64,000 nucleotides of DNA. Source: an uncultured Methanosarcinales archaeon (GTDB taxonomy: Archaea > Nanobdellota > Nanobdellia > Woesearchaeales > ARS49). The stretch covers positions 2,317-66,316 of the forward strand of contig CAZTVK010000015.1 of the NCBI GenBank assembly GCA_964617195.1, in the 5' to 3' direction. Shown one piece after another: positions 5,806 to 62,202 of the stretch. Every line of letters starts with the position of its first letter. Position 1 is the stretch's first letter. The notes under the pieces were generated by a model that was given only the letters and a program-made list of their open reading frames with translations, searched no databases and had not been told where the DNA came from. A program made the position numbers and the translations under genes.

Positions 5806-5812
5806 TTTTTCC

Positions 5813-16390: not shown

Positions 16391-16756
16391 ATGATGAAAA
16401 AAACGCTTATCATTCTGCTCATACTCGCCAGCTGCGCTCCTGCCCAAAACGGATTTCTCGAAGGAAGCGCTGACATCGGACCAATCTGTCCAGTCGAAAG
16501 ACCAGACCAGCCCTGCAAAGTCCCGCCAGAAGCGTACGAAGCACGCAAAATAATGGTTTACAACGGCAAAAAACTAGTCAAACAAATAGACATTGACAAC
16601 ACAGGGCACTATAAAACAGAACTAAAACCAGGAACGTACACAATCGACATCAACCGAGCAGGCATGGATTTCAGCAAAGAACTGCCAGCAAGCATCACAA
16701 TAGAACCGGACAAAACAACAACACTCGACATCAGCATAGACACAGGAATAAGATGA
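16391..16756 (+). CDS. Small secreted lipoprotein-like protein
   Basis: Signal peptide with lipobox LILASC. Overlaps the msrA start. Confidence 0.55.
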   Translation: MMKKTLIILLILASCAPAQNGFLEGSADIGPICPVERPDQPCKVPPEAYEARKIMVYNGKKLVKQIDIDNTGHYKTELKPGTYTIDINRAGMDFSKELPASITIEPDKTTTLDISIDTGIR

Positions 16757-29362: not shown

Positions 29363-30214
29363 CTACTGGCCATGCTCTTTCAGCCATTCCTGAGAAACAG
29401 GCTTATAATTCAGCAAGGCTGCGATTTTTTCCTCCTTGCCATAAAGCGGAACATTAGTGAAAAACACGTTCCTGAAACTAATCGGCTGCTGCCCCTGAAT
29501 TTCAATCTGAATCGGCACCTGCCTGCGCTGGTCGATGTGCAAGACAACACGCACGCCATCAACTAAGTAGTGCAAAGAAGGCTGGACTGTTTTCGGCACT
29601 CCCGCACTATTAAGCGTTTGAACACCAACCTCAACAAAATCAGGAACAACATCAGCAAAGTCTTCTAAATAATTCAAAGGCCCCTTGGATGTCCAATCTT
29701 CATATTGCATAGAAGTTTCGTTGTTAACAAAATGCTTGCAATTAGACTGCGACCACGTAAACTGATTGCCCATCATCTGCGCCTCATGCTCCACATTGCA
29801 ATAAGCAACCGCAGTATTACTTACAGAATCAACAAACACATCCGTAATAGGCACCCTATCAATAAAAATCACTTTCAAAAACATATGGCGCGATTTACCG
29901 CCTGAAACAAGCACAAACCTGTCTTCAAGCTCATACGCATACCCATCATACTTCTGAGCCTGAGCCAACAATTGCCTGCCAATGGCAACTGATTCAACAG
30001 CCTGAGGCTCTGGCGCGACAACCTCATTAGCAATTATTCTTTCATCTTTCTGAGGGCATTGCTCAACAGAAGAAGCAGTACTGCCATCCCAACACTGCAC
30101 GATGACTTTCTCCACAATTCTTTCTTCAACCACAGGCTGCATAGTTGGAGCGGGCTGTACCGCAGGCTGTGCGCATGCTGCAAACAACAATAATAACAAA
30201 ACCACCCATTTCAT
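29363..30214 (-). CDS. Secreted lipoprotein-like protein, paralog A
   Basis: Signal peptide MKWVVLLLLLFAACAQ (start reassigned). Shares the IVQCWDGSTAxSVxxCP block and C-terminal region with the adjacent paralog. Confidence 0.6.
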   Translation of the reverse strand: MKWVVLLLLLFAACAQPAVQPAPTMQPVVEERIVEKVIVQCWDGSTASSVEQCPQKDERIIANEVVAPEPQAVESVAIGRQLLAQAQKYDGYAYELEDRFVLVSGGKSRHMFLKVIFIDRVPITDVFVDSVSNTAVAYCNVEHEAQMMGNQFTWSQSNCKHFVNNETSMQYEDWTSKGPLNYLEDFADVVPDFVEVGVQTLNSAGVPKTVQPSLHYLVDGVRVVLHIDQRRQVPIQIEIQGQQPISFRNVFFTNVPLYGKEEKIAALLNYKPVSQEWLKEHGQ

Positions 30215-30255
30215 AGAACAATAGAGAACTTGCAAAGATAAAAATGTATCGCTTA

Positions 30256-31140
30256 TCAGTCGCCCAAAGCCTTCCAATACTCAGAAACAGGAACGTATTC
30301 AACCCAAGACTTGTCAATCTTCTGCTGACCGCCATAAAGAACCATGACGTCAAAGTAAGTATCCCTGAAGTCCACAGCTTGCGTACCCTCAACCTCAATC
30401 TTAATAGGAACTTGGTAACGCCTGTCAATCCTCAAAATAACACGCTTGCCATCAAGCATGTAATGCAAAGAAGGCTGGACAGTCTTTGAGTTTCCACCAA
30501 TACTAATAGTTTGAATGTTGTTTTCCACAAGAATAGGCTCCAGTTCAGAAAATTCTTTCAAATACTCTAAAGGACCTTTAGGAACCCATTTTTCATAAGG
30601 CACTGAAATCTCCTTGTCAATGTAGTCCTTGCACCTGCTTCTCTCGTACTCAAATGAATCATCCAAAATACGACCTTCCCGCTCGAGATTACAATAGGCG
30701 ACGGCCTCTTTTTTATCATGATCAACAAAAACATCAGTAATCGGAGTACGATCATCCAATTGAGACATCTTCAAAAACAAATGCCTGGACTTATTGCCAT
30801 AAACAATAACCATCCTGTCATCAAGCACAAAAGCATAACCTGTAAACTTAGTCTGAGCATCAGCCAGCAATTTCTTCGCGACAGGCATGGCCTCTGGAGC
30901 AGATTCAACGACAACCTTCGCAGGAGGCAAATCTTCAACAGAAGGCATGGTTTCAGCTTCCACAGGAGTTTCTTCCTTCACAGGACACTTGTCAACAGAA
31001 TCAGCAGTACTGCCATCCCAGCACTGAACGACAATCTTCTCAACACTCTTTTCTTCTGTTTTATTCTCAATTCCCGGCTGGACGTACGGCTGAGAAACAC
31101 ACGCTGCCAACAACAACAGAACCAAAAACCACTTTCTCAT
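30256..31140 (-). CDS. Secreted lipoprotein-like protein, paralog B
   Basis: Signal peptide MRKWFLVLLLLAACVSQ (start reassigned). Tandem paralog of 29363-30214. Confidence 0.6.
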   Translation of the reverse strand: MRKWFLVLLLLAACVSQPYVQPGIENKTEEKSVEKIVVQCWDGSTADSVDKCPVKEETPVEAETMPSVEDLPPAKVVVESAPEAMPVAKKLLADAQTKFTGYAFVLDDRMVIVYGNKSRHLFLKMSQLDDRTPITDVFVDHDKKEAVAYCNLEREGRILDDSFEYERSRCKDYIDKEISVPYEKWVPKGPLEYLKEFSELEPILVENNIQTISIGGNSKTVQPSLHYMLDGKRVILRIDRRYQVPIKIEVEGTQAVDFRDTYFDVMVLYGGQQKIDKSWVEYVPVSEYWKALGD

Positions 31141-31511: not shown

Positions 31512-32918
31512 TTACTCTCGATGCCTGATCTCAGGCTTGTTAGAAACAACCTCGCGCTCATTACCTTCAATGAAAAAGCGCACGGCAGCCACAGGCAAAG
31601 TCATCCCGCCAATAACCTGCAACCTCGTCCTCATCTTATACATCAAAATCCTGTGCTCTTTAGGCTCCATCATCTCAATATCCCATCTAACCAATGTGCC
31701 AGTATTCTCGTGAGGAACAATCTTAGACGGAGCAAGAATAGTCTCCTTGAACTCTTTTTCAACATCAGCAAGCTTTGGCGCCAAGTCCATAATGCGGACA
31801 TTTCGGACAATCTTACTGCTCCTATTCACCAACTCAATAACGACCTTCAACTCAGTAATCCCGCCCTCATGACTGCTGACAACAGAAGCTCTCTTTTGAA
31901 CAGCAATCGGACTCCTGAACAAATAATACGCAACGACAATAACTACTGCGATTAACACAAGCCAGAACAACGGACGATAATCATACGTAATCGAAATCTG
32001 CGCACTGGAACCTGCCTTCAAAGGAACTTCCCATGACAAAGCGCCCTCTTCACTGCGCGGCTCGGGAACAGCAGAAATAAACCACTTCTTAGCAAACCAA
32101 GCAGGAACCTTGTACACGTGCGCCAAAGGCTTGTTTCCCTTATTGTACAAAGTAACAGTCTCCAAACTCTTCAAGAATAAAGACTTCCTCTCAACAGAAG
32201 GCACCACAGCACCATAATCTATAACTTCAAAATGCGCAGGAAACAAATCAAACTGGTAAACTTTCTCTTTTTCCGGCACGACAATAGAAATCTGCAAAGC
32301 ATCCTTTCCAGGAGGAGTGAGAACGTCAATCTCGGCAAGGAAAGTCAAAGTCTTCTTCTCCAACGGGCCAAGAGAAGTTGTATAATCCTTGTTGACAACA
32401 CCGCTTCTGACCTTCACGTTCACATTTTCCAGAATACGCATGTTCTGATTTTCCAAAGACAACTTGATAGTCATCCCTTTTCTCGGATCAACCTCTTCAT
32501 CAACAGTCGCCACGCCCCTAATCGCAGGCAGATAAGTGGCGTCCTCAGGGAAAGGAGACTCAACAGAAATATACAATGCAACCTTTTTCTGATCACTTGA
32601 GCCTGTGCGCTTGAAAACAACAGGCAAGTTATACGAGCCAGGATTCAAATTCAACGGGTGCACTGACAAATTAGCCTTCAATTTCTCTCCAGGAAGAACA
32701 ATCAATATCTTTTCAGGACGCACATCCCAAGTCACGTCATTCGAAAAAACTTCAAATATCTCTTCAACAGAAGAATCATGCTCTAATTCTAACTCGAAAA
32801 TAGCAGTCTCGTTTGACTTTATAGTGCGTTCGTTCGGAAAAATAGAAATGTTAAAGTCAACAGCACTAACAGAAAACGCTAACAAGCACAACACTACAAC
32901 AAACAGCAACCGCCTCAT
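31512..32918 (-). CDS. Secreted/membrane protein (signal peptide plus one central TM helix)
   Basis: Start reassigned to MRRLLFVVVLCLLAFSVSA. TM segment LFWLVLIAVVIVVAYYLF. Last gene of the S-layer locus. Confidence 0.55.
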   Translation of the reverse strand: MRRLLFVVVLCLLAFSVSAVDFNISIFPNERTIKSNETAIFELELEHDSSVEEIFEVFSNDVTWDVRPEKILIVLPGEKLKANLSVHPLNLNPGSYNLPVVFKRTGSSDQKKVALYISVESPFPEDATYLPAIRGVATVDEEVDPRKGMTIKLSLENQNMRILENVNVKVRSGVVNKDYTTSLGPLEKKTLTFLAEIDVLTPPGKDALQISIVVPEKEKVYQFDLFPAHFEVIDYGAVVPSVERKSLFLKSLETVTLYNKGNKPLAHVYKVPAWFAKKWFISAVPEPRSEEGALSWEVPLKAGSSAQISITYDYRPLFWLVLIAVVIVVAYYLFRSPIAVQKRASVVSSHEGGITELKVVIELVNRSSKIVRNVRIMDLAPKLADVEKEFKETILAPSKIVPHENTGTLVRWDIEMMEPKEHRILMYKMRTRLQVIGGMTLPVAAVRFFIEGNEREVVSNKPEIRHRE

Positions 32919-32987
32919 TTTCACTACAGAAGAGGCGTTAGTATTTATAAATCTTATCAAAAAGAAAAAATGAGAAAAAAAATAAAA

Positions 32988-36827: not shown

Positions 36828-37373
36828 TCAGATAATAGCAAACCTAGTACTAGAACACATGACCATCATGCGCAAATCCGGGCTGGATTGCTTCATTCTC
36901 TCATAAACAGAGACGTCCTGCGCACTAGCCAAGCACTGATTAATAGGATGGCCATGCAAGTCAATCAAAGTCTCAATAGGACACGGCACACTAACAACAT
37001 GAATGACATTTGCCCTGATTATCTCAGGAAACTCAACTCTACTAATAATATAGGAAGAATCTTCCTTGCTACCAAACAAACACGCCTTAATCTCCCTATT
37101 CTCATTAGTGATGAACTCGTTTTGCAGTTGAACAAGCGTGTTGCCTTCAAAAATTACGGTTGCGCTAGGAAAATACAATGCACTATCAGTTACCCGCTCA
37201 CTATGAATAATACCGGAAAGAGCATCATAGAACGAAAGAGAAACGACAAGCATTAAAAGAAAAAAACCAATCACGATAAGAAGAGGTCTTCTCCAAGGAG
37301 ATTCAGGTATCGGCTGCTCTAGTTCTTCGGGGTCGATGCCCTCGAAAACAGGATTATGTTGCCCATTGCCCAT
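36828..37373 (-). CDS. Hypothetical membrane-anchored protein
   Basis: 181 aa with a TM segment LLIVIGFFLLMLVVSLSF. Confidence 0.45.
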   Translation of the reverse strand: MGNGQHNPVFEGIDPEELEQPIPESPWRRPLLIVIGFFLLMLVVSLSFYDALSGIIHSERVTDSALYFPSATVIFEGNTLVQLQNEFITNENREIKACLFGSKEDSSYIISRVEFPEIIRANVIHVVSVPCPIETLIDLHGHPINQCLASAQDVSVYERMKQSSPDLRMMVMCSSTRFAII

Positions 37374-37728
37374 AACGCTCAGGCAGATCTTCAGGAATCA
37401 CACAACAATACTTGCCAGGATTAGTCTCATCAGCAACACACGGGTACGGGCTCGTCAAGGCTTCCGCACCATACGAGCAATCCCACTTGTCCTTATTAGA
37501 ATACAAGAACTGTTGAGCACGGTCCATATACAACTGCCTCTCAAATGCATGACCCATCACGTTAGGCTGCTGATAAATCTTCTTGATAGCACCACCATAA
37601 ATCTTAGGACCACGAGAACTGCCCAATGAAAGATAAGCATTACCAGTCAATGAGTCATTCAAAACAACAGCAAACACAGAAACAACAACAACCAACAAAA
37701 TACCAATCAATGCAATACGTTCTGACAT
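37354..37728 (-). CDS. Type IV pilin-like protein (class III signal peptide), paralog 3
   Basis: N-terminus MSERIALIGILLVVVVSVFAVVL. Shares the YGGAIK block with the 57094 paralog. Confidence 0.55.
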   Translation of the reverse strand: MSERIALIGILLVVVVSVFAVVLNDSLTGNAYLSLGSSRGPKIYGGAIKKIYQQPNVMGHAFERQLYMDRAQQFLYSNKDKWDCSYGAEALTSPYPCVADETNPGKYCCVIPEDLPERYGQWAT

Positions 37729-38483: not shown

Positions 38484-39749
38484 TTAAAAGCCGAAGGACT
38501 TCTGCCTTTTCTTATAGTATTTATAGCCATAATAGAACACGAAAGGCAGAATAAGTATGATTAGCAAATACCAATACCACGCAACACCCTTCTCAACAAC
38601 AGGCACTTCAGACACGTTCTGAGGCAGTACTAGTTCTTCTTTCTCGGACACTTTGCTTTCAGACCTCTTTTCAGGCTTCTCACAAGCATCACCAACACCA
38701 TCCTTGTCAGAATCAGCCTGATCTTCATTCATTATTGCAGCACAATTATCAGTAAAGTCAAAAACGTCATCACCATCAATATCCTCAGCCTTTGCAAAAC
38801 GGATAATAACGTCATCCTGGTCATTATCACCATTCAAATCACCAACATCTTTTTCAGAAGAAGAAAACACCGCAGTATCCTCAAACACTGAAACTTCACC
38901 AGCAACAACATCCATCTTGGCAGCTGACTTTGACTCAAGATTCCAACCATACAAAAAGCCATCATTAGAGAATAATATTACGTCTCCAGAAATTGAAGGA
39001 GAACTGCCTTTAAGCTCAGTATCAAACACCTTTCTTTCTCTTGCATCAAGAATCTTTATTTTCCCATCAGAAGCAAACACCGCCATGCTATCCTTTGACA
39101 ACAACGGACGCCCTGCTGAAACAGGAATATTAGTAACGCCGCGATCCTCACGATCATACACGCGCACTATCTCATCAGCCTTATCGCCATCAGCATTCAA
39201 ATCAGTATCCAACTGTTTTTCCTCTGTAACGAACACCGCAAATTTTTGATTCACCACAGGATAATCACCCACTGCCTTTGTGTTCGTAATCTCTCCTGTC
39301 CCAATATCATACATTCTGACAATGTCGTCATCCACATCATCGTCATTGGTAAAATCAATGCCCAGCTCAGACTCTTTTGTTGAGAAAATAATCATATCAG
39401 CAAACACGCTCGGATGCCGTCCGACAGCATTCGTGCTCACAACTTTTTTGTCACGCACGTTCGCAAACTGAATGACAGTATCATCTTCATCCTTATCACC
39501 ATTCAAATCATTGTCAGACTCCTTTGTCTCAAACACCACAGTAAAGCCGAAAATAGCCGGAGAAGAACCCTGGCTGAGCTCAGTATCCTCATTCCTTGCC
39601 AAATCATAAACGTGAATGAAACCATCACGCTCGTACACGACAATGCCACCATATAACATTGGATGACTGCCCTGCATTCCAGTGCTTTCAACAATCAAAG
39701 CAGCAGAAAACGGAAGTACCAATAAGAGAGCAATAATCCATGGGCGCAT
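38484..39749 (-). CDS. Surface-anchored repeat protein with Ca-binding-like DxDxDG motifs, a thrombospondin type-3-like repeat and a C-terminal TM anchor
   Basis: Start reassigned to MRPWIIALLLVLPFSAALIV (signal peptide). The upstream part of the 572-aa ORF overlaps rps8e. About 4 repeats of K.xD.DLNGDxDxDDxVIRF. DSDKDGVGDACE near the C-terminus. C-terminal TM WYWYLLIILILPFVFYY. Confidence 0.6.
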   Translation of the reverse strand: MRPWIIALLLVLPFSAALIVESTGMQGSHPMLYGGIVVYERDGFIHVYDLARNEDTELSQGSSPAIFGFTVVFETKESDNDLNGDKDEDDTVIQFANVRDKKVVSTNAVGRHPSVFADMIIFSTKESELGIDFTNDDDVDDDIVRMYDIGTGEITNTKAVGDYPVVNQKFAVFVTEEKQLDTDLNADGDKADEIVRVYDREDRGVTNIPVSAGRPLLSKDSMAVFASDGKIKILDARERKVFDTELKGSSPSISGDVILFSNDGFLYGWNLESKSAAKMDVVAGEVSVFEDTAVFSSSEKDVGDLNGDNDQDDVIIRFAKAEDIDGDDVFDFTDNCAAIMNEDQADSDKDGVGDACEKPEKRSESKVSEKEELVLPQNVSEVPVVEKGVAWYWYLLIILILPFVFYYGYKYYKKRQKSFGF

Positions 39750-39837
39750 ATCACGATAAGAAAAACATACCCATATAAACCTTTTGACATGGGCTAACAC
39801 AGAAACCTTTTTAAATAACCTATAGCCCAGCACGATT

Positions 39838-40218
39838 ATGGTCATAGTACACAGAGCAAGAACGAACAGAAAGCCAACAGGCGGCATGTACAACATAGCC
39901 CGAGATAAACGAAAATACGAAATGGGAAGGTTGCCAACCATGACAAAAATCGGCACACAAAAAATCAAGGCTGTAACGACAAAAGCAAACACGAAAAAAA
40001 TGAAAGTCCTCGTAGCACAATTCGCAAACGTTCTTGATCCAAAAACAAAAAAGTTCGTAAAAGCGACCATCAAAACAGTTGATGAATGCCCGGCAAACAG
40101 GCACTTCGTCAGACGAAACATAGTAGTCAAGGGCGCAGTAATAATGACAGACGCAGGAAAAGCAAAAGTAACATCTCGTCCTGGACAAGATGGAACTGTC
40201 AACGCAGTGCTTATTTAG
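39838..40218 (+). CDS. rps8e: 30S ribosomal protein S8e (eS8)
   Basis: RKPTGG...RKYE...AKVTSRPGQDGTVNAVL matches archaeal S8e. Confidence 0.9.
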   Translation: MVIVHRARTNRKPTGGMYNIARDKRKYEMGRLPTMTKIGTQKIKAVTTKANTKKMKVLVAQFANVLDPKTKKFVKATIKTVDECPANRHFVRRNIVVKGAVIMTDAGKAKVTSRPGQDGTVNAVLI

Positions 40219-50302: not shown

Positions 50303-51646
50303 TTATTTTGACAACGAGACAACGGCAGAAGGCAGTATAACATCCAAAACTCCTTCAGAGAAATCACCTTCAAGCCTGTCCGCAAGACACGCATTAATAA
50401 GCGCTTTTGCCTTCAATTTCGACTTAACCTTGCACTTATCCGGATTCTGTTTCGGTCCTCTTTCTGGAGGCGACGGCATAGGAGATATCCCTGCATGAAC
50501 CATTGCATAAACACAAGACGAGTCCTTCCTATAGGCAGAATACGGAGTGAAACTTACCGGCCTAATTTTTGTTGCGGTCAACTCCAAATCAGCAGGAAGA
50601 GAAATATCGGCTTTCCCCTTGGACAGTTTTTCATCACTTCTGATTCTCCACATGAAAGGCTCAAAATGCATCAGATGACTTCCCGTACCATCATAGCCAC
50701 TGAAATCATAATGCCTGGTTTTTTGGTAAAGATCAAGCACTAACTTGCTCATTGTCTGGCCTTTGTCGTACATGTCATTAAGAATTTCACTTGCATCTGG
50801 ATCTGATATCGTAACTGTTCCTGGCTGACCGCTAATCCCCGGTTCGCCATGACAAATATTACCATCCTCATCAAGCCAGTATACTTTCAAAATACCGCCA
50901 GCAGGATCAATTGTTATTTTTAGTCCTGGCGGCAGCTCTTCAAACCACCGCGTTATATCAATTATCAATCCATTCTCACGCGGACCGCTTTTTTCTCCAG
51001 GCAAAATAGAAAGTAAAATGCCTTTCAAAAAGTCAATAACACCTACAAAGAACCCCTTTGGTTTCGGCTTTTCAACTACTAGCACATACTCTGCTTTTGG
51101 CTTTGACGTCATTTCCCTCTCATCAATCTCCAAAGGTTCAACCTCTACAGATTCAACATGCGGCGCAGGAGTTGGTTCAACAGGCGGAACAAATTTCGGC
51201 GGTGCAACAACAGGAATTGGTTCTTTTAGCACAGACTTGCAACCCTTGTTCGTACATTCCTGATATTTACCACACGTCAACTGAGTCTGCCAGACACCAT
51301 TAATACACATCTGGAAGTTCTGACGATCACAACGCTTTTCACCATAATAACACTCGGCCGGCCGAGCAGATGGCGGCTCTTCATAAGGCTCTTCCGGAAT
51401 CTGCATCACACCAGGAGGCACATAAGCAGGCTCTGTGCACCCTTGATTCGAATCACAGCCGTATTCACACTGTTGTATGGCCTGCCAATTCCCATTTACG
51501 CACTGCAAGAAAACATTGCCATCGCACTGAGTATCACCTTCATTACAAAAAGCAATGTTCTGACCAATATTAGGATCATAATACTGCGCAGAAACAACAG
51601 GAATAATCAGTAATAACAACACTAACAACACTACCTCTTTTTGCAT
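50303..51646 (-). CDS. Secreted protein with two N-terminal 6-Cys modules, a Pro-rich linker and a C-terminal domain of unknown function
   Basis: Signal peptide. Duplicated C..G.W......C.YGC...GC modules. PVVAPPKFVPPVEPTPAP linker. Confidence 0.55.
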   Translation of the reverse strand: MQKEVVLLVLLLLIIPVVSAQYYDPNIGQNIAFCNEGDTQCDGNVFLQCVNGNWQAIQQCEYGCDSNQGCTEPAYVPPGVMQIPEEPYEEPPSARPAECYYGEKRCDRQNFQMCINGVWQTQLTCGKYQECTNKGCKSVLKEPIPVVAPPKFVPPVEPTPAPHVESVEVEPLEIDEREMTSKPKAEYVLVVEKPKPKGFFVGVIDFLKGILLSILPGEKSGPRENGLIIDITRWFEELPPGLKITIDPAGGILKVYWLDEDGNICHGEPGISGQPGTVTISDPDASEILNDMYDKGQTMSKLVLDLYQKTRHYDFSGYDGTGSHLMHFEPFMWRIRSDEKLSKGKADISLPADLELTATKIRPVSFTPYSAYRKDSSCVYAMVHAGISPMPSPPERGPKQNPDKCKVKSKLKAKALINACLADRLEGDFSEGVLDVILPSAVVSLSK

Positions 51647-51737: not shown

Positions 51738-53003
51738 ATGTCAAAAATACTCGCAGTCAAAGCACGCCAAGTTCTAGACAGCAGAGGAAATCCTACTGTT
51801 GAGTGCGATATCAAGACAAACGACGGAATATTTAGGGCAAGTGTGCCATCAGGAGCAAGCACAGGCGCAAACGAAGCGCTTGAACTGCGAGACCACAAAA
51901 AAGAATTCTTAGGCAACGGAGTAATGAGAGCAGTCAATAATATAAACTTAATTCTGGCAAAAAAACTCAAAGGAAGAAACCCGACAACACAAGAAGAACT
52001 CGATAATTTAATGATAAAACTAGACGGAACTCAAAACAAAAGCAAACTAGGAGCAAACGCGATGCTTGCAGTCAGCATGGCGCTATCACGCGCAGGAGCA
52101 GCAGCGAAAAAACAACAATTGTACGAACACATCGGAGAATTATACGGCACGAAAAAATTCACACTGCCGATACCAGCATTCAACATCATAAACGGAGGAA
52201 AACACGCCGGAAACAAATTAGACATACAAGAATACATGATACTGCCAACAGGAGCCAAGAACTTCGCAGAAGCACTCCGCATAGGAAGCGAGATTTACCA
52301 CACTCTCAAGAAAAATCTGGAAAACCACTTCGGAAAGACAGCCATCAATGTAGGAGATGAAGGCGGATTTGCGCCTCCATTAACCTGCATAGAAGAGCCG
52401 TTTGACTACATCACAGACGCGATAATCAAGCTCGGTTATTGGAAAAAAGTAAAACTAGGCATAGACTGCGCATCAACAACATACTGGAAACACGGCACAT
52501 ACTACCTGGAAGGAAAAGAATACACGCCAGACAAGCTAGCAGAAAAATACCAAGAACTCGCCGACAATTATCCTCTAGTCAGCATCGAAGACCCATTCTA
52601 CGAAGAAGACTTTGAAAATTTCGCGAAATTAAACCGAAGATTAGTGAACACGCAAATAGTTGGAGACGATTTATTGGTAACAAACCCAAAAAGAGTCAGA
52701 AAAGCAATAACGATGAAAAGCTGCAACTGCCTTTTACTTAAGATTAATCAGATCGGCACGATAACAGAAGCGCTCGAAGCCGCAAAAATGGCCAAGAACG
52801 CAGGCTGGAACATCATGACATCGCACAGAAGCGGAGAAACAGAAGACAGCTTCATCGCTGATCTGGCAGTCGGCATTGCCTCAGGACAGATAAAGTCAGG
52901 AGCGCCATGCAGAGGAGAAAGATTAGCAAAATACAATCAACTATTACGCATAGAAGAAGAAACAGGAGCACCATATGCAGGAAAAACAATCAGATTTGCT
53001 TAA
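51738..53003 (+). CDS. eno: Enolase
   Basis: 421 aa with the SHRSGETED signature. Confidence 0.95.
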   Translation: MSKILAVKARQVLDSRGNPTVECDIKTNDGIFRASVPSGASTGANEALELRDHKKEFLGNGVMRAVNNINLILAKKLKGRNPTTQEELDNLMIKLDGTQNKSKLGANAMLAVSMALSRAGAAAKKQQLYEHIGELYGTKKFTLPIPAFNIINGGKHAGNKLDIQEYMILPTGAKNFAEALRIGSEIYHTLKKNLENHFGKTAINVGDEGGFAPPLTCIEEPFDYITDAIIKLGYWKKVKLGIDCASTTYWKHGTYYLEGKEYTPDKLAEKYQELADNYPLVSIEDPFYEEDFENFAKLNRRLVNTQIVGDDLLVTNPKRVRKAITMKSCNCLLLKINQIGTITEALEAAKMAKNAGWNIMTSHRSGETEDSFIADLAVGIASGQIKSGAPCRGERLAKYNQLLRIEEETGAPYAGKTIRFA

Positions 53004-53730
53004 GTTTGCGATCAGTTTAGCGAAGGAAAGCGCGCAAATTCTGAAAAGAATGCAAAAAAACGCTAAAATAGTGCAGGAAAAAGTTCAGGGAGACTTTGCG
53101 CTTAATGCTGACATCGCTTCTGAACAACACGTCATGAAAAGAATAAGGCAAAAATATCCAAGCCACGACATTCTCACAGAAGAATCAGGACACCACCACA
53201 AAGATTCCGAATACCTGTGGATAATCGACCCTCTCGAAGGAACGCTCAACTACGCGCATCATCTTCCAATATGGGCAGTTAACATAGGGCTTTTCTACAA
53301 AGGAAAACCATACCTAGGCGTCATATACGCACCCATCATTAAAGAATTATTCCACGCATCAAAAGGAAAAGGAACCTACCTGAATGGAAAAAGAGTGCAT
53401 GCCAACAAAGAAACAGACATCATGAAATCATTCTTTGCTGCAACAACAGCACAAATAAATGAAATACCAATAAGCCCAACAATAGTCAGAGGAATCGGCT
53501 GCGCCGGAGTTGAGCTCGCATATGTGGCATGCGGGCGCTTTGCAGCGAAAATAAAACTCAGAGGAAACGACCCATACGGATACGGAGCCGGAAGCATCAT
53601 AGTAATGGAAGCAGGCGGAAAAATAACGGACATGAAAGACAATCCGTGGAATTTGAAATCAAACGGCGCACTGGCAAGCAACGGAAAAATTCACGACAAA
53701 CTACTCAAGCTTCTCAGTAATACTTCTTAA
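52975..53730 (+). CDS. suhB: Inositol monophosphatase / fructose-1,6-bisphosphatase family protein
   Basis: WIIDPLEGT motif and IMPase fold blocks. Confidence 0.8.
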   Translation: MQEKQSDLLKFAISLAKESAQILKRMQKNAKIVQEKVQGDFALNADIASEQHVMKRIRQKYPSHDILTEESGHHHKDSEYLWIIDPLEGTLNYAHHLPIWAVNIGLFYKGKPYLGVIYAPIIKELFHASKGKGTYLNGKRVHANKETDIMKSFFAATTAQINEIPISPTIVRGIGCAGVELAYVACGRFAAKIKLRGNDPYGYGAGSIIVMEAGGKITDMKDNPWNLKSNGALASNGKIHDKLLKLLSNTS

Positions 53731-54397
53731 GAATATTGTGCTTATCAGTGGCTAATCTGACATGAGAAGGCAAGACAACGCTCTTCCATGACTTTCTCGT
53801 AAACGGAGGCGCTTTGCCTGAAGGAACGTCAACAAAATATTCAAAATAATCATCATACGGCATCTCCCACTTCATCATCTGCTGAATAGAAGCTTTCTCA
53901 AAATGCCGGCGGAAAGGACGCATGCTGTTGCCATGCGCTGAAATAGCGACGCTCACCTTATACTTCCTGATGAAGACTAGCAAGTCTTTGATGAACGAGT
54001 TAACACGACTTTCAACCATTTTCACACTCTCGCCCTTTGGCGGAGGAAAATTGTAAGCGCGATGGTATTTATCATACAATGCTTTGCCGTTTTCACGAAT
54101 AAAAGCAGCATGAGCACGACCTTGCAAAAGCCCATAACACCTCTCAAGCATCCTGTCGTCGCGAAAGACAACCTTGCACTCACGATGATGTTTAAGCACT
54201 TCCTTCAATGTTTCCTTAGAACGCGTCAAATTAGAAGAAAACGCGACATCAACACGCCGATTCCTGAGCTTCCTGCCAACCAGGGACGCATTCATCTTTC
54301 CTTTAACAGTCCACGTCGCGTCCTTCCACCCAGTAAACATCTTCCTCTTGTTAAAATGCGTCTGGCCATGACGGAACAGATAGATATAGCATTTCAT
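53714..54397 (-). CDS. Histidine phosphatase (phosphoglycerate mutase family)
   Basis: YIYLFRHGQT RHG motif. Start reassigned to the internal Met MKCYIYLF. Confidence 0.75.
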   Translation of the reverse strand: MKCYIYLFRHGQTHFNKRKMFTGWKDATWTVKGKMNASLVGRKLRNRRVDVAFSSNLTRSKETLKEVLKHHRECKVVFRDDRMLERCYGLLQGRAHAAFIRENGKALYDKYHRAYNFPPPKGESVKMVESRVNSFIKDLLVFIRKYKVSVAISAHGNSMRPFRRHFEKASIQQMMKWEMPYDDYFEYFVDVPSGKAPPFTRKSWKSVVLPSHVRLATDKHNILKKYY

Positions 54398-56190
54398 TTT
54401 CCAACTGCCTTGTTGTGCGCTTCTATATACCTTTCTATAAACAGCTTCCAATCAGCAGTAGCAGCAATCTTCTGCGCCATAATCTTGTTCTCAATCCGCT
54501 CCTTTGTCGTAAAGTGAGCAAACTGAGACATCATATCAGTCAAAGACTTGATAATCTCCTCAGTAGACTTTTTGAAACGTTGAAGCACGAAAATACCTGG
54601 ATACTTGCTCGGCGAACATTCCTTGCAAATATACTGGCCAAAACCAGAAAGATCAGTTGTAAGACTACTCACGCCGAGCGCTGCAGCCTCCAGAGGAGTA
54701 TACCCCCACGGCTCATAATAACTAGGGAAAACACCCAAATGACTGCCCTGCATACTCTCGTAATAACTGGTATCCAACAAGCCATCTGCGCCTGACAAGT
54801 AGATTGGATAGAAGACAATCTTGACAACATCATCAGGAGAATTGTCCAATCCAACTTCACGCAAAGTCTTCATAATCAAATCAGTATCTTCATCAAACAA
54901 GAAATGCGTGCTAAGCGGAGGCAAGCCTTTGCGCGCCAAACGCTTCAATTTAGGCCTGATCTCCTGAAGAAAATCATCACCAAGCAAAGACTTGTTGTTG
55001 ATATCTTTTCCCATAATCAACAATTCTGAAACCTTATTCTGCACGTCCTCATGCACTTCCTCAACGCTCTTCTTGATATCATTGAAAAACGTCCTGCTCT
55101 CCAAAAGCTCAGGACGGATTGCCTTAACATTACCCGGAATCCAGAAGAACGCCACAATCGTCTTTTCACACTTCTCAGCCTTCAACTGATCATTAAGCCT
55201 GCCTAACGCCTTTATGAAAACATCAACACCCTTATCATGAAATTCATACCGGCCTGCAAGGAAAAAAATCAAAGTATTCTCAATGTCGAAAGTATAATAG
55301 GGAAAGAAATAATACATCAAAAACTGCTTCATCCTGTTCTTGAAGAACTTGTGCTTCAAAGAAGCCTCCTCAAAAGACGGGAATTTAGACATGTCAAGAC
55401 CATTGAATAACAAAACATCAGGCTTCCTGCCAAGAAAATGCCCTGCTTCCATTCCAGTAATCTCGCTTACAGTCGTGAAAACATGAGCATTCTGAGCACT
55501 CTGCTTTTCCAGCGAATGCTTAGCCCAAACAGAAATGCCGAGACGCTTAGCCTCGCCATCACTGTCAATACTCTCCAACTGCTCGTAAATATCCCTTTCC
55601 TGCATTGCCAAAGAACGGCCCAAAGTAGTAGCATGAGTGGTAAAAACAGTGCCCACCCTGACATTTTCATGCCTTAAGTACAACAAGCCAGCGCCAGCAA
55701 GCCATTCATGAAAATGAGCAACGATCTTTTTCCCAGAAAACACCTTGCTTAATTCCTCAATAAGCCTGCCCACAGCATACGCCCACATTACAGGCTCGTC
55801 AAAATCAAACCAGTCCGTATTAAGACTGTCAATCTGATACCAATCCCACAATTTACGCTTAACATCGTTCTTCTGGACAGAGAAATTAGTAAAATCGACC
55901 AGCAAGGTATTCGGATTCCCTTTCGTTATCCAAGTGCCACAATGCACTTCAATGCCTTCCTGCTTAAGCTTCTCAAAAGCCCCCTTGCACTCCGCAGGAG
56001 GAATATGCTCCTCAAAAATACCCCAAGACTTCTTAGGAAAATACGGGCCAACCAAGAAATAATTATCCCCATAATGCTCTTTCATAGGCAGAATCTTGCT
56101 CTGCACAACCGTGAAAATCCCGCCAACCTTATTGCAAACTTCCCACGAAACTTCAAAACAAATCTCTGCCTTAGATTCCATTCTTAACAC
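54394..56190 (-). CDS. Glycogen synthase, eukaryotic type (GT3 family)
   Basis: FEVSWEVCNKVGGIFTV, VAHFHEWLAG, FTTHATTLGRS, HVFTTVSEIT, FFLAGRYEFHDKG and LGVFPSYYEPWGYTP are near-identical to animal/fungal glycogen synthase motifs. Confidence 0.85.
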   Translation of the reverse strand: MLRMESKAEICFEVSWEVCNKVGGIFTVVQSKILPMKEHYGDNYFLVGPYFPKKSWGIFEEHIPPAECKGAFEKLKQEGIEVHCGTWITKGNPNTLLVDFTNFSVQKNDVKRKLWDWYQIDSLNTDWFDFDEPVMWAYAVGRLIEELSKVFSGKKIVAHFHEWLAGAGLLYLRHENVRVGTVFTTHATTLGRSLAMQERDIYEQLESIDSDGEAKRLGISVWAKHSLEKQSAQNAHVFTTVSEITGMEAGHFLGRKPDVLLFNGLDMSKFPSFEEASLKHKFFKNRMKQFLMYYFFPYYTFDIENTLIFFLAGRYEFHDKGVDVFIKALGRLNDQLKAEKCEKTIVAFFWIPGNVKAIRPELLESRTFFNDIKKSVEEVHEDVQNKVSELLIMGKDINNKSLLGDDFLQEIRPKLKRLARKGLPPLSTHFLFDEDTDLIMKTLREVGLDNSPDDVVKIVFYPIYLSGADGLLDTSYYESMQGSHLGVFPSYYEPWGYTPLEAAALGVSSLTTDLSGFGQYICKECSPSKYPGIFVLQRFKKSTEEIIKSLTDMMSQFAHFTTKERIENKIMAQKIAATADWKLFIERYIEAHNKAVGK

Positions 56191-56348: not shown

Positions 56349-56969
56349 TTAGACGAATCCTGGGCGCTCTCCGCAACCCCATGCTCCATCTTGGATTGCT
56401 TGCGTGACGTCATTGATGACATCATCACGGCTCAAACCATACTGGTCAGACTTTGTAATCCAATCACCTGCAGTTAACTGCTGCATAGACATTGACATTC
56501 TTGCCAATGAAGCCCATGCTTGGTGCTCTTGGAAGCTGAGTGACACTGGTAGGTCTACACCGTTCAAGATGCTCAACCATGTGCATGCTCGGTATGACGG
56601 AATCTCTTCCAATTGTTCATTGTGAACAAGGTTCGTCTGACTGCTCACTGCACGTGCTTTGACTGATTCACCATATTGAGTTTCTGCAATTGGCTGGTAG
56701 TATCCTGGTCCACCAAGGCCTGAGAATCTCTCGCCTGAAGAACCGTCTGCTCCGCTTGGGAATTCATACGATCTTCCTGCAAATGCTCTCGATTCAGGGT
56801 CTGCGACACCTCTGACTGCTCCACCATATTCTTTGGCGGCTGGCACTGCGAACTCACCAACTGCTGACTTTCGCGCACCCGTGAAGAGTAGCACCAAACC
56901 AACAATCGCTATTATCGCAACTATGCCTAGAATTACAAGTGCGATTCCTTTTCCACTTTCTTCTGCCAC
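56349..56969 (-). CDS. Type IV pilin-like protein (class III signal peptide), paralog 1
   Basis: MAEESGKG|IALVILGIVAIIAIVGLVLLF. Positively charged N-terminus, KG cleavage context and hydrophobic helix. Confidence 0.65.
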   Translation of the reverse strand: MAEESGKGIALVILGIVAIIAIVGLVLLFTGARKSAVGEFAVPAAKEYGGAVRGVADPESRAFAGRSYEFPSGADGSSGERFSGLGGPGYYQPIAETQYGESVKARAVSSQTNLVHNEQLEEIPSYRACTWLSILNGVDLPVSLSFQEHQAWASLARMSMSMQQLTAGDWITKSDQYGLSRDDVINDVTQAIQDGAWGCGERPGFV

Positions 56970-57093: not shown

Positions 57094-57552
57094 TTAATTA
57101 ACGCCTGCGATTCCGCCGACCATTGTGTCTGGCGGGAAAACGCACACGCCTGGCTTGTCTCCAGCCTGCACAACATCATAACCAATCGATGCATAATATT
57201 CTGCCTGGTCGTTGTAAGGTACAAGGAAACCGCCGGATTCGCACTTTCTCATTGCGCTTGGAATGTCACTCACTGGGTTTCTCTTTGGGTCGCCGTAATA
57301 ATTCCAGCTAGTGTGCATGTCATTATACTGAGTTTGTCCTGGGATGTAATTAGGATTTTGGAATTCAGGAACGTTTCTTGGAACACCGCGACCAGTCCAG
57401 TACGGATACGGGACTTGCTTGATCGCTCCGCCGTAAACACCTTCACCAGTTGCGTTCTTGCCTTGAACGAACATTAAGACAAGACCAACAATTGCAATAA
57501 CGGCAACAATGCCTAGAATCACTAATGCTATACCTTTGTGTTCACTTGCCAT
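57094..57552 (-). CDS. Type IV pilin-like protein (class III signal peptide), paralog 2
   Basis: MASEHKG|IALVILGIVAVIAIVGLVLMF. N-terminus nearly identical to paralog 1. Confidence 0.65.
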   Translation of the reverse strand: MASEHKGIALVILGIVAVIAIVGLVLMFVQGKNATGEGVYGGAIKQVPYPYWTGRGVPRNVPEFQNPNYIPGQTQYNDMHTSWNYYGDPKRNPVSDIPSAMRKCESGGFLVPYNDQAEYYASIGYDVVQAGDKPGVCVFPPDTMVGGIAGVN

Positions 57553-57622: not shown

Positions 57623-58066
57623 TTAAATGTTGCGTTTCTTGGGAAAATATTCTCTCACTAATAATAACAAAACGGCAATTGTGATAGCAGAATCAGCGAC
57701 ATTAAAAGCAGGCCAGAAATGGAAATCAATAAAGTCAATAACTGAGCCATAAAGAAGACGGTCTGCAAGATTTCCGAACGCTCCACCGAGGATAAGTCCC
57801 AAGATGGGCTGCAATTTCTGAGAGAAAGTTTTGTATTTCAAGATGAGAAATACGCTCACTGCTGCCGCAAAAATCACGAAAAACCACGACGCATTTCTGA
57901 ACAAACCAAAAGCAGTGCCGGTATTCAAGACATGAGTTAACGAGACGATTGGGAAATCTATAGACGAGTTAAGCGGAATAAATCTCAGGACGAAAAATTT
58001 AGAAACTCTGTCGAGAATCAAAACAGCGAGCGCTATGCTCCAGAATGCTAAGTGCTTGTTCGCCAT
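57623..58066 (-). CDS. lspA: Lipoprotein signal peptidase (signal peptidase II, LspA)
   Basis: LDRVSK, NTGTAFGLF, GGAFGNLADR, VIDFIDF and FNVADS correspond to the conserved LspA blocks, including the two catalytic Asp regions. Confidence 0.85.
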   Translation of the reverse strand: MANKHLAFWSIALAVLILDRVSKFFVLRFIPLNSSIDFPIVSLTHVLNTGTAFGLFRNASWFFVIFAAAVSVFLILKYKTFSQKLQPILGLILGGAFGNLADRLLYGSVIDFIDFHFWPAFNVADSAITIAVLLLLVREYFPKKRNI

Positions 58067-58440
58067 CTCTGCTGATAAGGACTAGGCTCCTCTTTCCTTT
58101 CCAAACGATCAAGACGCTGCAAAACCGTCTCCAACTGAGCTTTAATCGTGTCTAATTTTGAAGAAATCAACTGCAACTGCTGCTCTGTCGTAACGGGAGC
58201 GAACTGCTGTTGCTGCGCTTGCTGCTGCGCAAAAGCCCTTGGAACTTGACCACTAAACTGCTGCTGCCCAAAATCCTCAACAGGAGGCTCGGTCAGTCCA
58301 GGCATCGGCCTAGGCATACCCATCTGCTCCATTCCCCCAGGCATATGCTGTTCAGAAGGAGCAAACTCGGCAGCACGTGGAAATTCCTGAGGCATCTCCT
58401 CTTCTTTTTTCCAGAACTTCAATTTATCCATCATGCCCAT
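58048..58440 (-). CDS. Hypothetical Q/P-rich coiled-coil protein
   Basis: 130-aa low-complexity ORF overlapping the lspA start by 19 nt. Confidence 0.4.
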   Translation of the reverse strand: MGMMDKLKFWKKEEEMPQEFPRAAEFAPSEQHMPGGMEQMGMPRPMPGLTEPPVEDFGQQQFSGQVPRAFAQQQAQQQQFAPVTTEQQLQLISSKLDTIKAQLETVLQRLDRLERKEEPSPYQQRWRTST

Positions 58441-58487
58441 AAAGACAAAGAAACACAGAGTTGCATTATAAAACTTTTGATAGGCTC

Positions 58488-59492
58488 TTAACCATCACAT
58501 ACATCATCATCGTTCGCATCCAAGCAATAACACACCTGATTATCAGCAATAGTAACAAGCGATCCAGGAGGAGCTGAACTCAAAACAGAATTAGCAGTCA
58601 CGATGCCTACAAGAGGCAAGCAAGTGATTTGAGGCTTGACAACACCAATCGCGAAGCACGGATTACTTACTATTATCAAATTTCCTATACCCCAACTCTG
58701 ACTTCCAATATACCATGAAACGTCAATCTTGTCTGCCATCTTGTTCTCAAAGTCCAATATGCTGGCAAGAACCGCAGGACAACCACTCGTGCTCTGGGAA
58801 TCAGCAGCAACACCATTCAATGAAATAGTGGCTCCGATACTGTTCGAACACCAGTTGTGATGATGAGCAATATTTGGTTCAACAATCTTCAGCTTGTCAA
58901 CAACCCTTGCAGTGAAGCTCTTCGACCAAGAATTTCCAAAAGCCTGGCCGCTCGCAATATCCTCCTGCACGCAAACCTGACAGACATTTCCGACACCATT
59001 CGAATCACTATCAGCCTGATTATAGTTTGCAACGTTCACGCAATTATCGCAAACATCACCGCGCTTATCCCTATCAGCATCAGCCTGATCAGCATTAGAA
59101 GTCATAGGACAATTATCAATAACATTGGCAACACCATCGCCATCAAGATCAGGAAGAATATCAGTAACGTCCATCACCACAATAAAAGATCTGGGCGGCT
59201 GAACATACTTAATAATCGCGTATTTAGTAACGGTTCCACGCTCTGAAGTAGCAGTAATCTTACGAGAACCAAGAGGAACATTTGAGAATGTTGCGATACC
59301 GCCACTGGTAGTTGTCTGCGTGCACATAGTCGGATAAGCATCATCACACATGTCAATAATCACTCCTGGCGCTCTAGGACTGGTAGCAATTTGCACTTTG
59401 GTGGTTTGAGGACCGGTAGCCCTGCCAGGACCAATGCAAGACGCGATTAATAATAAAGAGAGAACTGCTAATACCATCACCAGCTTTTTCAT
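58488..59492 (-). CDS. Lipoprotein with thrombospondin type-3 (Ca-binding) repeats
   Basis: Signal peptide with lipobox LLIASC. DLDGDGVANVIDNCP, NADQADADRDKRGDVCDNC and NQADSDSNGVGNVCQVC repeats. Confidence 0.65.
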   Translation of the reverse strand: MKKLVMVLAVLSLLLIASCIGPGRATGPQTTKVQIATSPRAPGVIIDMCDDAYPTMCTQTTTSGGIATFSNVPLGSRKITATSERGTVTKYAIIKYVQPPRSFIVVMDVTDILPDLDGDGVANVIDNCPMTSNADQADADRDKRGDVCDNCVNVANYNQADSDSNGVGNVCQVCVQEDIASGQAFGNSWSKSFTARVVDKLKIVEPNIAHHHNWCSNSIGATISLNGVAADSQSTSGCPAVLASILDFENKMADKIDVSWYIGSQSWGIGNLIIVSNPCFAIGVVKPQITCLPLVGIVTANSVLSSAPPGSLVTIADNQVCYCLDANDDDVCDG

Positions 59493-61016: not shown

Positions 61017-61378
61017 AAGCATTATCACTGAAACAACCATGGGCAGAACTCATCGTATCAGGAAAGAAAACGATTGAAGTCAGGAACTGGAACACGAAAT
61101 TCAGAGGAGAATTCCTAGTACACGCGTCAAAAAATACAAATAAAGAAAAAGAACGAGAATTCGGCTTCAAAGACCTGCCAACAGGATGCATCGTCGGCAA
61201 AGCAACGCTCTTAGACGTCAAAAAATACAAAACACAAAAAGAATTTGAGAAAGACTCTGACAAACATTACGCGCGCGGCTGGTGGAATTCAAAAGCGCAC
61301 GGATTCACACTCGCTAACGCGCAAAGACTCCCATTAAAACCAATAAAAGGAAAACTGAACTTCTTTGAAACAGCCTAA
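61013..61378 (+). CDS. ASCH-domain protein
   Basis: LKQPWAELIVSGKKTIEVRNW motif. Start at internal Met overlapping the ogg stop (ATGA). Confidence 0.65.
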   Translation: MKALSLKQPWAELIVSGKKTIEVRNWNTKFRGEFLVHASKNTNKEKEREFGFKDLPTGCIVGKATLLDVKKYKTQKEFEKDSDKHYARGWWNSKAHGFTLANAQRLPLKPIKGKLNFFETA

Positions 61379-62202
61379 ATCTTCACAAAGAAATTCTTCC
61401 CCCTAAAAGAACGCAACAAATCAGCACCAATCGCTCTCGCACTGATTTTCACCACATATTTTCCAGGAACAAGAGAAGCACGAGAAACACTAGAGCCGAA
61501 ACCAAAACAACGATTATTACCGATCAATTTCTTATTCATCGGAGAAGTCACAAGCGAGCCATCACGCAAAACTTCAACAGAAACAATTTCGCTTCCAAGC
61601 ACTTCCGTCAAAAACTCAGCATTCACTTCGCGCAATACTTCAAACTCAAACCAAGTCTCAACAACCCGCTCATCAGTCCTCGCCAGACAACTCAACTGCC
61701 AAGGCAAACTCACAGATTTAGTTTTCAAAGGAGTCTGCTCGCACATTGTCTGCGGCAAACAATTATCATAACATTTAGTTACGCGCAACACATCACCAAA
61801 AGTTCCTTCTGCGCACCTGCCGTCATCAACCAATTTGTAAACTGGCTTTGAAACTTTCAGACACGCGCCATTCTCACAGCCAAACTCGCAATCAATAATT
61901 TGAGCAACAACCTCATCATTATCGCACACATACTCTAGAACCTTTGAAATAGGCTGAAGCCCATCCTTTCTAACAGACAAACAAGAATCAGACAATAACT
62001 TATCACTCATCACACTGCCCTTCACAAAAACATCAAAACCATCAGAATCAACACACTTGACAACCTCTGCAGGAGAGGGTATCTGCTCAACAGGCACGGG
62101 CTGCTCAAAAACAGGAGATTCAACTTGGATGCTCGGCTGCTGAACAGACTCTTTTACAGGCATACAAGCAACAAGCAACAGAAGAAACACCAGCTTTTTC
62201 AT
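61375..62202 (-). CDS. Cys-rich secreted lipoprotein
   Basis: Start reassigned to MKKLVFLLLLVACMP (lipobox LVAC). The upstream part of the 370-aa ORF overlaps nth on the other strand. Confidence 0.55.
   Translation of the reverse strand: MKKLVFLLLLVACMPVKESVQQPSIQVESPVFEQPVPVEQIPSPAEVVKCVDSDGFDVFVKGSVMSDKLLSDSCLSVRKDGLQPISKVLEYVCDNDEVVAQIIDCEFGCENGACLKVSKPVYKLVDDGRCAEGTFGDVLRVTKCYDNCLPQTMCEQTPLKTKSVSLPWQLSCLARTDERVVETWFEFEVLREVNAEFLTEVLGSEIVSVEVLRDGSLVTSPMNKKLIGNNRCFGFGSSVSRASLVPGKYVVKISARAIGADLLRSFRGKNFFVKI

Follow-up and report, generated by a model that had tools for sequence, protein, structure and literature searches.

Prepilin and preflagellin peptidases of the PibD/FlaK type (class III) are polytopic membrane aspartic proteases that remove specialised archaeal signal peptides. 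The maturation of archaeal lipobox proteins involves AliA and AliB (arCOG02177/02178, Haloferax volcanii), which, unlike the lipoprotein signal peptidase LspA, act in lipidation and have no sequence relation to LspA (PMC12462473). Lipoproteins were predicted to be prevalent in the DPANN archaea, where AliA occurs "with some gaps", and in 2025 the archaeal lipoprotein signal peptidase was described as still unidentified, with no archaeal Lsp homolog known (PMC12462473). In 2018, archaeal genomes were stated to have no homolog of signal peptidase II (SPII), Lgt or Lnt (PMC6098224). The initial annotation of the DNA studied here, a stretch of 64,000 nucleotides (nt) from contig CAZTVK010000015.1 (the window), had stated that SPII homologs are generally considered absent from Archaea, in agreement with this literature, and had nevertheless read an lspA gene in it. 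We analyzed this gene, its product of 147 amino acids (aa), the genes around it and the lipobox proteins encoded in the same window (Table 1). The results make it likely, in our judgement with good confidence, that the gene is chromosomal in a DPANN archaeon of the Woesearchaeota type and encodes a genuine and active LspA, probably acquired from bacteria long ago and vertically inherited since, which would act on the lipobox proteins of its host.

The LspA protein (N-terminus MANKHLAFWS, encoded on the minus strand) was recovered by the Pfam model for signal peptidase II, PF01252 (Peptidase_A8), at 116.4 bits (cutoff 25), the match spanning positions 1-140 of the 142 in the model. It also passed the lspA equivalog model TIGR00077 (NCBIfam/TIGRFAM) with 104.4 bits against a cutoff of 73.95, and its sequence matches in PDB were solely the P. 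aeruginosa and S. aureus LspA structures (E 1e-17 to 9e-16). In S. aureus LspA, 14 residues are highly conserved (D21, K25, N52, G54, G102, N106, D109, R110, V116, D118, F132, N133, A135 and D136), with Asp118 and Asp136 forming the catalytic dyad (PMC6952399). All 14 were found in the archaeal protein by motif spacing and HMMER alignment, as D19, K23, N48, G50, G95, N99, D102, R103, V109, D111, F121, N122, A124 and D125, and they were invariant or nearly so across 33 aligned clade members with 38-88% identity. The four blocks DRVSK, NTGTAFG, GGAFGNLADR and FNVADS had been recognised correctly in the initial annotation, which had not singled out the first catalytic aspartate, D111 inside SVIDF. 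Together with D125 inside FNVADS, it is the counterpart of P. aeruginosa D124 and D143; D102 of GNLADR is conserved and lies outside the catalytic dyad.

An AlphaFold2 model built on the 33-member clade alignment had a pLDDT of 90.3 and a pTM of 0.83. Its helices (residues 5-28, 59-79, 82-105 and 122-139) and strands corresponded to four transmembrane (TM) helices and a beta-cradle. When this model was compared with PDB using Foldseek, significant matches were found solely to the LspA chains 5dir and 6ryo/6ryp (E 5e-11 to 4e-10, TM-score 0.76-0.83, root-mean-square deviation 2.3-2.7 A). Every sequence and fold test that was run placed the protein in the LspA family.

Compared with bacterial LspA (P. 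aeruginosa 5DIR, S. aureus 6RYO/6RYP and E. coli b0027), the archaeal protein belongs to the same Pfam and TIGRFAM family and has the same 14 residues, Asp-Asp dyad and four-helix plus beta-cradle fold at 29-38% identity, and its genome encodes the same kind of lipobox substrates. It differs in its host, a DPANN archaeon, and in its compact size (147 aa vs 164 aa in E. coli), the alignment showing a shorter extracellular loop and beta-cradle hairpin than in P. aeruginosa LspA. Unlike the bacterial setting, no ileS, lgt or rluD was found near the archaeal lspA, which instead overlaps a partner gene preceded by a TATA/BRE-like element (BRE, B recognition element). An archaeal type is also possible for the membrane lipids and thus for the lipid attached to the cysteine. 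Peptidases of the PibD/FlaK type are likewise polytopic membrane aspartic proteases for specialised signal peptides, but they have the GxGD family and fold, recognise another motif and involve no lipid-modified Cys. The archaeal LspA was not similar to them; by family and by fold, it matched only LspA significantly.

The novelty lies not in the enzyme itself, a canonical representative of a known family, but in its host domain, its old and integrated status in the lineage and its conserved partner. No paper describing an archaeal LspA was found in the literature searched on signal peptidase II and Woesearchaeota, lspA and DPANN, or DPANN lipoproteins. Since the NCBI and JGI pipelines already label relatives as "signal peptidase II [Candidatus Woesearchaeota archaeon]", the surprise is moderate. 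The finding nevertheless corrects the general statement that archaea have no SPII homolog, as a canonical LspA occurs in a whole DPANN lineage, and it provides a concrete candidate for an archaeal lipoprotein signal peptidase, with conserved lipobox substrates. Cleavage of haloarchaeal lipoproteins is not explained by it, because lspA was seen only in genomes labelled Woesearchaeota or Nanoarchaeota.

Archaeal host and inheritance of lspA

The archaeal context read in the initial annotation from split rpoB, rpoH, eL37, eS8, Nop10 and aIF2-alpha was borne out by Pfam or tblastn. The same contig encodes RNA polymerase A'/A'' (Rpb1), H and a split Rpb2 (B''/B', 5813-7615 and 7612-9099), NusA-KH, eL30, S7, S12, aIF2-alpha, Nop10 and LSM, as well as eL37, eS27, eL42, GINS51, PAC2 and eS8 (about 39838-40218). 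Elsewhere, LspA is a hallmark of bacteria, and many bacteria are among the homologs at 51% identity or less, as might be expected if a fragment with a bacterial lspA had been joined to an archaeal contig during assembly or binning. Such a bacterial/archaeal chimera had been raised in the initial annotation, and the genomic neighbourhood and composition both speak against it.

The lspA gene lies in a block with the order 130-aa gene, lspA, two small proteins with an N-terminal TM segment, glycogen synthase of glycosyltransferase family 3 (GT3), histidine phosphatase, enolase and aIF2-alpha, with the OGG and EndoIII glycosylases on the opposite flank. This block was conserved in 12 independently assembled contigs with an LspA identity of 72-80%. 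Its core was kept in Woesearchaeota loci whose LspA identity was just 43-47%, and it was also present on archaeal contigs of 91, 149 and 548 kb together with eIF-1A, diphthamide synthase, LSM, eS8, eS27, eL42, GINS and PAC2. Overall, the lspA gene order recurred, on both flanks, in about 20 independently assembled Woesearchaeota/Nanoarchaeota contigs from different studies. The identical LspA with its upstream genes, including the substrate gene 58488..59492, was assembled twice more from separate sequencing runs (loci L001 and L002). The GC content of the window was even (0.38-0.48) with no step around 56-60 kb, and lspA had a GC content of 0.408 and a third-position GC content of 0.453, compared with 0.436±0.025 and 0.446±0.051 for the genes of the window. 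The archaeal-type TATA/BRE-like element upstream and the conserved overlap with an archaea-only partner gene also argue against a foreign fragment. Because the synteny recurs in independent archaeal contigs and the identical gene was assembled from two more runs, an assembly chimera is excluded, and the explanation by a joined bacterial fragment, whether through assembly or binning, is effectively refuted.

With one genome taken per GTDB species, LspA proteins of 72-80% identity were confined to metagenome-assembled genomes (MAGs) labelled Woesearchaeota, Nanoarchaeota/Nanoarchaeia or "uncultured archaeon", some of them mislabelled Methanosarcinales. The name "uncultured Methanosarcinales archaeon" on loci L005-L008, L012, L014 and L040 looks wrong; these names are evidently mislabels, because the gene order and the 72-80% LspA identity are common to them and to Woesearchaeota/Nanoarchaeia MAGs. 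Among the matches listed in two large protein searches, the named archaeal LspA sequences were from Woesearchaeota or Nanoarchaeota only.

The dN/dS ratio between lspA orthologs was 0.06-0.17, with synonymous sites near saturation. The gene is under purifying selection and vertically inherited in a deep archaeal clade. The nearest non-archaeal relatives of this LspA are bacterial, which would also fit a recent and selectively neutral horizontal transfer that had left lspA as a passenger not integrated in its host. However, recent transfer is excluded because synonymous sites are nearly saturated at this dN/dS ratio; in addition, synteny extends down to 43% identity, the composition is that of the host and a host gene contains the start codon of lspA. 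The data thus refute a passenger gene.

The preferred explanation, an old bacterial gene passed on vertically, was also examined in a neighbor-joining tree of 54 LspA sequences, in which the close clade was recovered in 200/200 bootstraps. Three aspects of this tree count against the bacterial part of that history: the single clade that held all 18 archaeal LspA sequences in the best tree was recovered in just 52/200 bootstraps, no bacterial sister group or donor was resolved, and the bacterial sequences included were biased by the peptide patterns used for their retrieval. The simplest reading would be that the gene was acquired from Bacteria once, long ago, and then descended vertically. The initial annotation had called the gene probably horizontally acquired, which is plausible; the gene is fully ameliorated, syntenic and vertically inherited, and the phylogeny named no donor.

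Overlapping partner gene and putative promoter

The initial annotation had overlooked a conserved gene that overlaps lspA. The ATG of lspA sits within the AGA-TGG (Arg-Trp) codons of this partner gene. In all archaeal loci that include the region, a partner homolog immediately precedes lspA, compared with 0/65 bacterial loci. The overlap, with the ATG inside an (R/K/L)W pair and a length of 7-19 nt, was kept in 18/20 archaeal loci. The exceptions were L036, where a Fic-motif gene lies in a 1.07-kb insertion, and L088, where the two genes are 32 nt apart. The insertion in L036 (about 6350-7422) holds a 314-aa open reading frame (ORF) with the Fic motif HPFQDGNGRVGR and was the sole split of more than 1 kb between partner and lspA. 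Another Fic gene was found near lspA in L086 (11974-12831).

In a HMMER search of 1.84 billion representatives, the partner family comprised 292 clusters, all of them stand-alone proteins of about 90-180 aa, with no fusions to other domains. Two members at 30-31% identity were again linked to Peptidase_A8 genes. The N-terminus of the partner protein contains an MGxxDKLKFWKKEE motif with an invariant FW, followed by a variable and disordered linker rich in Pro, Gln and Gly and a conserved helix (residues 85-116; ...SKLDTIKAQLETVLQRLERLE), with K95 and D97 invariant. The near-invariant Trp of the C-terminal RW(R) is a trace of the lspA start codon embedded there. Neither a Pfam match nor a TM segment was found for this protein, and the AlphaFold2 model was confident for the long helix 85-116 only.

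The element upstream of the partner gene (Table 1) was read from the sequence as BRE and TATA, which we take it to be from the archaeal promoter consensus. No intergenic space for a promoter is present before lspA. It is likely that this element is the promoter of partner and lspA, giving a leaderless or nearly leaderless transcript. Because the element lies upstream of the partner and no promoter space precedes lspA, partner and lspA likely form a bicistronic, translationally coupled transcript. The small archaea-specific coiled-coil protein that would be made together with LspA in this way may be a cytoplasmic or membrane-peripheral cofactor or regulator.

Lipobox proteins and the lipidation step

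Lipobox proteins were searched for from all six-frame ATG starts with a rule consisting of a K/R n-region, a hydrophobic core, [LIVFM][ASTVIGL][GAS], a free +1 position and a polar tail. This rule replaced a PROSITE-like one (Cys at 15-35), which missed 3/5 substrates (Cys at 13-14) and in which the +1 control was swamped by TM helices. Among the 7 distinct matches, +1 was Cys in 5, against a Cys share of 1.5% among residues (binomial P about 1.6e-8), so that the lipobox frequency within the window is above background. Five of the "at least six" lipobox proteins announced in the initial annotation were confirmed (Table 1); a sixth was not found in the 64-kb window, even with relaxed rules. For the minus-strand lipobox genes, it had listed the 3' ends as positions, and in three cases the gene begins downstream of the mechanical ORF start.

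The lipobox is retained in both of the tandem paralogs at 29363-31140, which share 47% identity. In the family of the 30256..31140 protein, a hydrophobic run leading into L-x-[AS]-C was found in at least 82 of 87 database homologs (45-94% identity), with the consensus L-[AVSI]-[AS]-C. Of the 5 homologs missed by the pattern, at least 3 were artefacts (a gene call truncated at its N-terminus, a fragment and an LMAC variant) and 2 had long upstream gene-call extensions. All named homologs among the 87 were Woesearchaeota, Nanoarchaeia or "uncultured archaeon". Judged from equal contig sizes (91,101, 40,871 and 36,416 bp), homologs of this substrate family and of LspA appear to share contigs. Because at least 82/87 homologs at 45-94% identity keep the Cys, the lipobox Cys is under selection in the lineage that carries LspA, and such conservation is what a working Cys-dependent maturation step would predict. 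As for the other substrates, the 16391..16756 protein had a weak CarboxypepD_reg match below the Pfam cutoff, the 58488..59492 protein had one thrombospondin type-3 (TSP3) repeat match, and no Pfam match was found for the 61375..62202 protein. A TATA-like GAAAGTTTTAAATA is located about 28 nt upstream of the ATG of the 58488..59492 gene.

The presence and conservation of lipobox substrates make it very probable that the cleavage step works. We propose that LspA resides in the cytoplasmic membrane with four TM helices and its Asp111/Asp125 dyad near the outer face, where it would cut Sec-exported precursors between the -1 [AS] and the +1 Cys of the L-[AVSI]-[AS]-C lipobox. The cleaved protein would stay anchored through its modified N-terminal Cys. 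The substrates would be the many lipobox proteins of the organism, including the five in the window.

Homologs of Lgt were searched for using phmmer with E. coli Lgt and a hidden Markov model built from 9 Lgt sequences, covering a small part of each genome. With the same E. coli query and 9-sequence model, Lgt was detected immediately downstream of lspA in 8/65 bacterial loci. Three points weigh against this proposal: Lgt was not detected (E<=10) in either the 64-kb window or the about 20 archaeal lspA loci, neither the window nor the surroundings of lspA in those loci contained an uncharacterised polytopic protein of suitable size as a lipidation candidate, and canonical LspA normally requires a diacylglyceryl-Cys substrate. 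The only polytopic proteins of the window besides LspA were an MscS-like protein and one spurious ORF. Of the functioning maturation pathway suggested in the initial annotation, the peptidase and its substrates were thus found and Lgt, within this range, was not.

One explanation is that the bacterial pathway is complete, with Lgt and perhaps Lnt, which not all bacteria have, encoded elsewhere in the genome and the lipoproteins diacylglyceryl-modified as in bacteria. DPANN archaea have many bacterial genes and may scavenge lipids, and both the exact fit of the lipoboxes to the bacterial consensus and the full conservation of the substrate pocket residues of LspA are consistent with such a pathway. 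The lack of Lgt in 64 kb and about 20 archaeal neighbourhoods, in contrast to lgt adjoining lspA in 8/65 bacterial loci, argues against it, as does a RefSeq-wide PF01790 scan that reported Lgt as absent from archaea, RefSeq omitting most MAGs (bioRxiv 10.1101/2025.03.27.645668). We regard a complete bacterial pathway as possible but rather doubtful.

A hybrid pathway in Woesearchaeota can be suggested with equal caution, in which a bacterial-type SPII is adapted to archaeal membranes and to precursors with a Cys lipidated by an enzyme other than Lgt (AliA-like or other) and with an obligate archaea-specific coiled-coil partner. If this tentative scheme were true, it would make the protein described here the first archaeal lipoprotein signal peptidase to be identified and its partner the first known accessory protein of any LspA.

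It could also be that this LspA homolog no longer processes lipoproteins and instead acts on non-lipidated signal or membrane peptides, or serves as an antibiotic-immunity decoy like the extra lspA copies in inhibitor producers. Neither the window nor the archaeal loci yielded a lipid transferase, Lgt-independent Lsp cleavage occurs in some Gram-positive bacteria, the lineage-specific partner hints at a modified function, and the small secreted or TM proteins encoded beside lspA lack a lipobox. However, the 14/14 substrate-binding and catalytic residues are invariant, each locus has a single lspA copy with no biosynthetic cluster nearby, and canonical lipobox substrates are abundant, with a Cys conserved over 45-94% identity that is hard to explain without Cys-dependent maturation. 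An altered role of this kind seems improbable, and a lipoprotein signal peptidase that acts on the lipobox proteins is preferred.

The genes inserted in or adjacent to the lspA loci L089, L036 and L087 were considered as lipid transferases and rejected, as they encode soluble, Fic-motif and secreted proteins, not membrane proteins. A 189-aa protein with 4-5 TM segments was found about 3-4 kb from lspA in L005, L006, L007, L010, L013 and L086 (6142-6711 in L086). It belongs to the PEMT/ICMT family (phospholipid or isoprenylcysteine carboxyl methyltransferase), has no homolog in the window and was not counted as part of the system. A gene of the inositol-monophosphatase (IMPase) family is located about 4 kb from lspA at 52975-53730 (+), maybe by coincidence; aliA genes often adjoin IMPase-family genes (PMC12462473).

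Ordinary signal peptides without a lipobox were present in a 911-aa S-layer-like protein (PF05124; 33749-36484 (-)) and a 482-aa secreted protein (31512-32960 (-)). Type I-style and lipobox-style export signals coexist in the organism (33749-36484 (-), 31512-32960 (-) and 50303-51646 (-)). A mechanical 572-aa ORF at 38484-40202 (-) overlaps the real eS8 gene (39838-40218 (+)), and its N-terminal part is spurious. The product of the true, shorter gene is a secreted repeat protein that has a C-terminal TM anchor and a weak TSP3-repeat match below threshold.

Table 1. Features of the lspA region and predicted lipoprotein substrates in the window (a slash marks the predicted cleavage site before the lipobox Cys)
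Feature	Position	Strand	Description
Predicted lipoprotein substrate	16391..16756	(+)	121 aa, MMKKTLIILLILAS/C; lipobox signal peptide MMKKTLIILLILASC
Predicted lipoprotein substrate	29363..30214	(-)	283 aa, MKWVVLLLLLFAA/C; signal peptide MKWVVLLLLLFAAC; tandem paralog of 30256..31140
Predicted lipoprotein substrate	30256..31140	(-)	294 aa, MRKWFLVLLLLAA/C; lipobox signal peptide MRKWFLVLLLLAAC
lspA	57623..58066	(-)	147-aa type II (lipoprotein) signal peptidase, MEROPS A8; D111 and D125 dyad
Partner gene	58048..58440	(-)	130-aa soluble protein; 19-nt overlap with lspA
BRE/TATA-like element	58465..58479	(-)	cAAAAG-TTTTATAAT, centred about 29 nt upstream of the partner ATG; read from sequence
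Predicted lipoprotein substrate	58488..59492	(-)	334 aa, MKKLVMVLAVLSLLLIAS/C; signal peptide MKKLVMVLAVLSLLLIASC; directly upstream of partner-lspA
Predicted lipoprotein substrate	61375..62202	(-)	275 aa, MKKLVFLLLLVA/C; lipobox signal peptide MKKLVFLLLLVAC

Neighbouring genes

Three small proteins encoded at 57094-57552 (-), 56349-56969 (-) and 37354-37728 (-) have a common N-terminus, M..(E)xKG/IALVILGIVA(V/I)IAIVGLVL, and no Pfam match was found for any of them. This N-terminus resembles the class III (type IV pilin-like) signal peptides of archaea, which would make them candidate substrates of that type of processing beside lspA. Two of the three are encoded directly downstream of lspA, and this position was kept in nearly all related loci.

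The gene at 54394-56190 (-) encodes a full-length eukaryote-type GT3 glycogen synthase (PF05693, 526.6 bits). In the archaeal relatives, the GT3 glycogen synthase is likewise located a few genes from lspA, with 58-94% identity. In one distant Woesearchaeota locus only (L031), a 532-aa GT-C glycosyltransferase (PMT_2/PMT, 4293-5891) is encoded directly downstream of lspA. It is of the dolichyl-phosphate-mannose protein mannosyltransferase type, and its position is reminiscent of actinobacteria, in which lipoprotein export and O-mannosylation are coupled.

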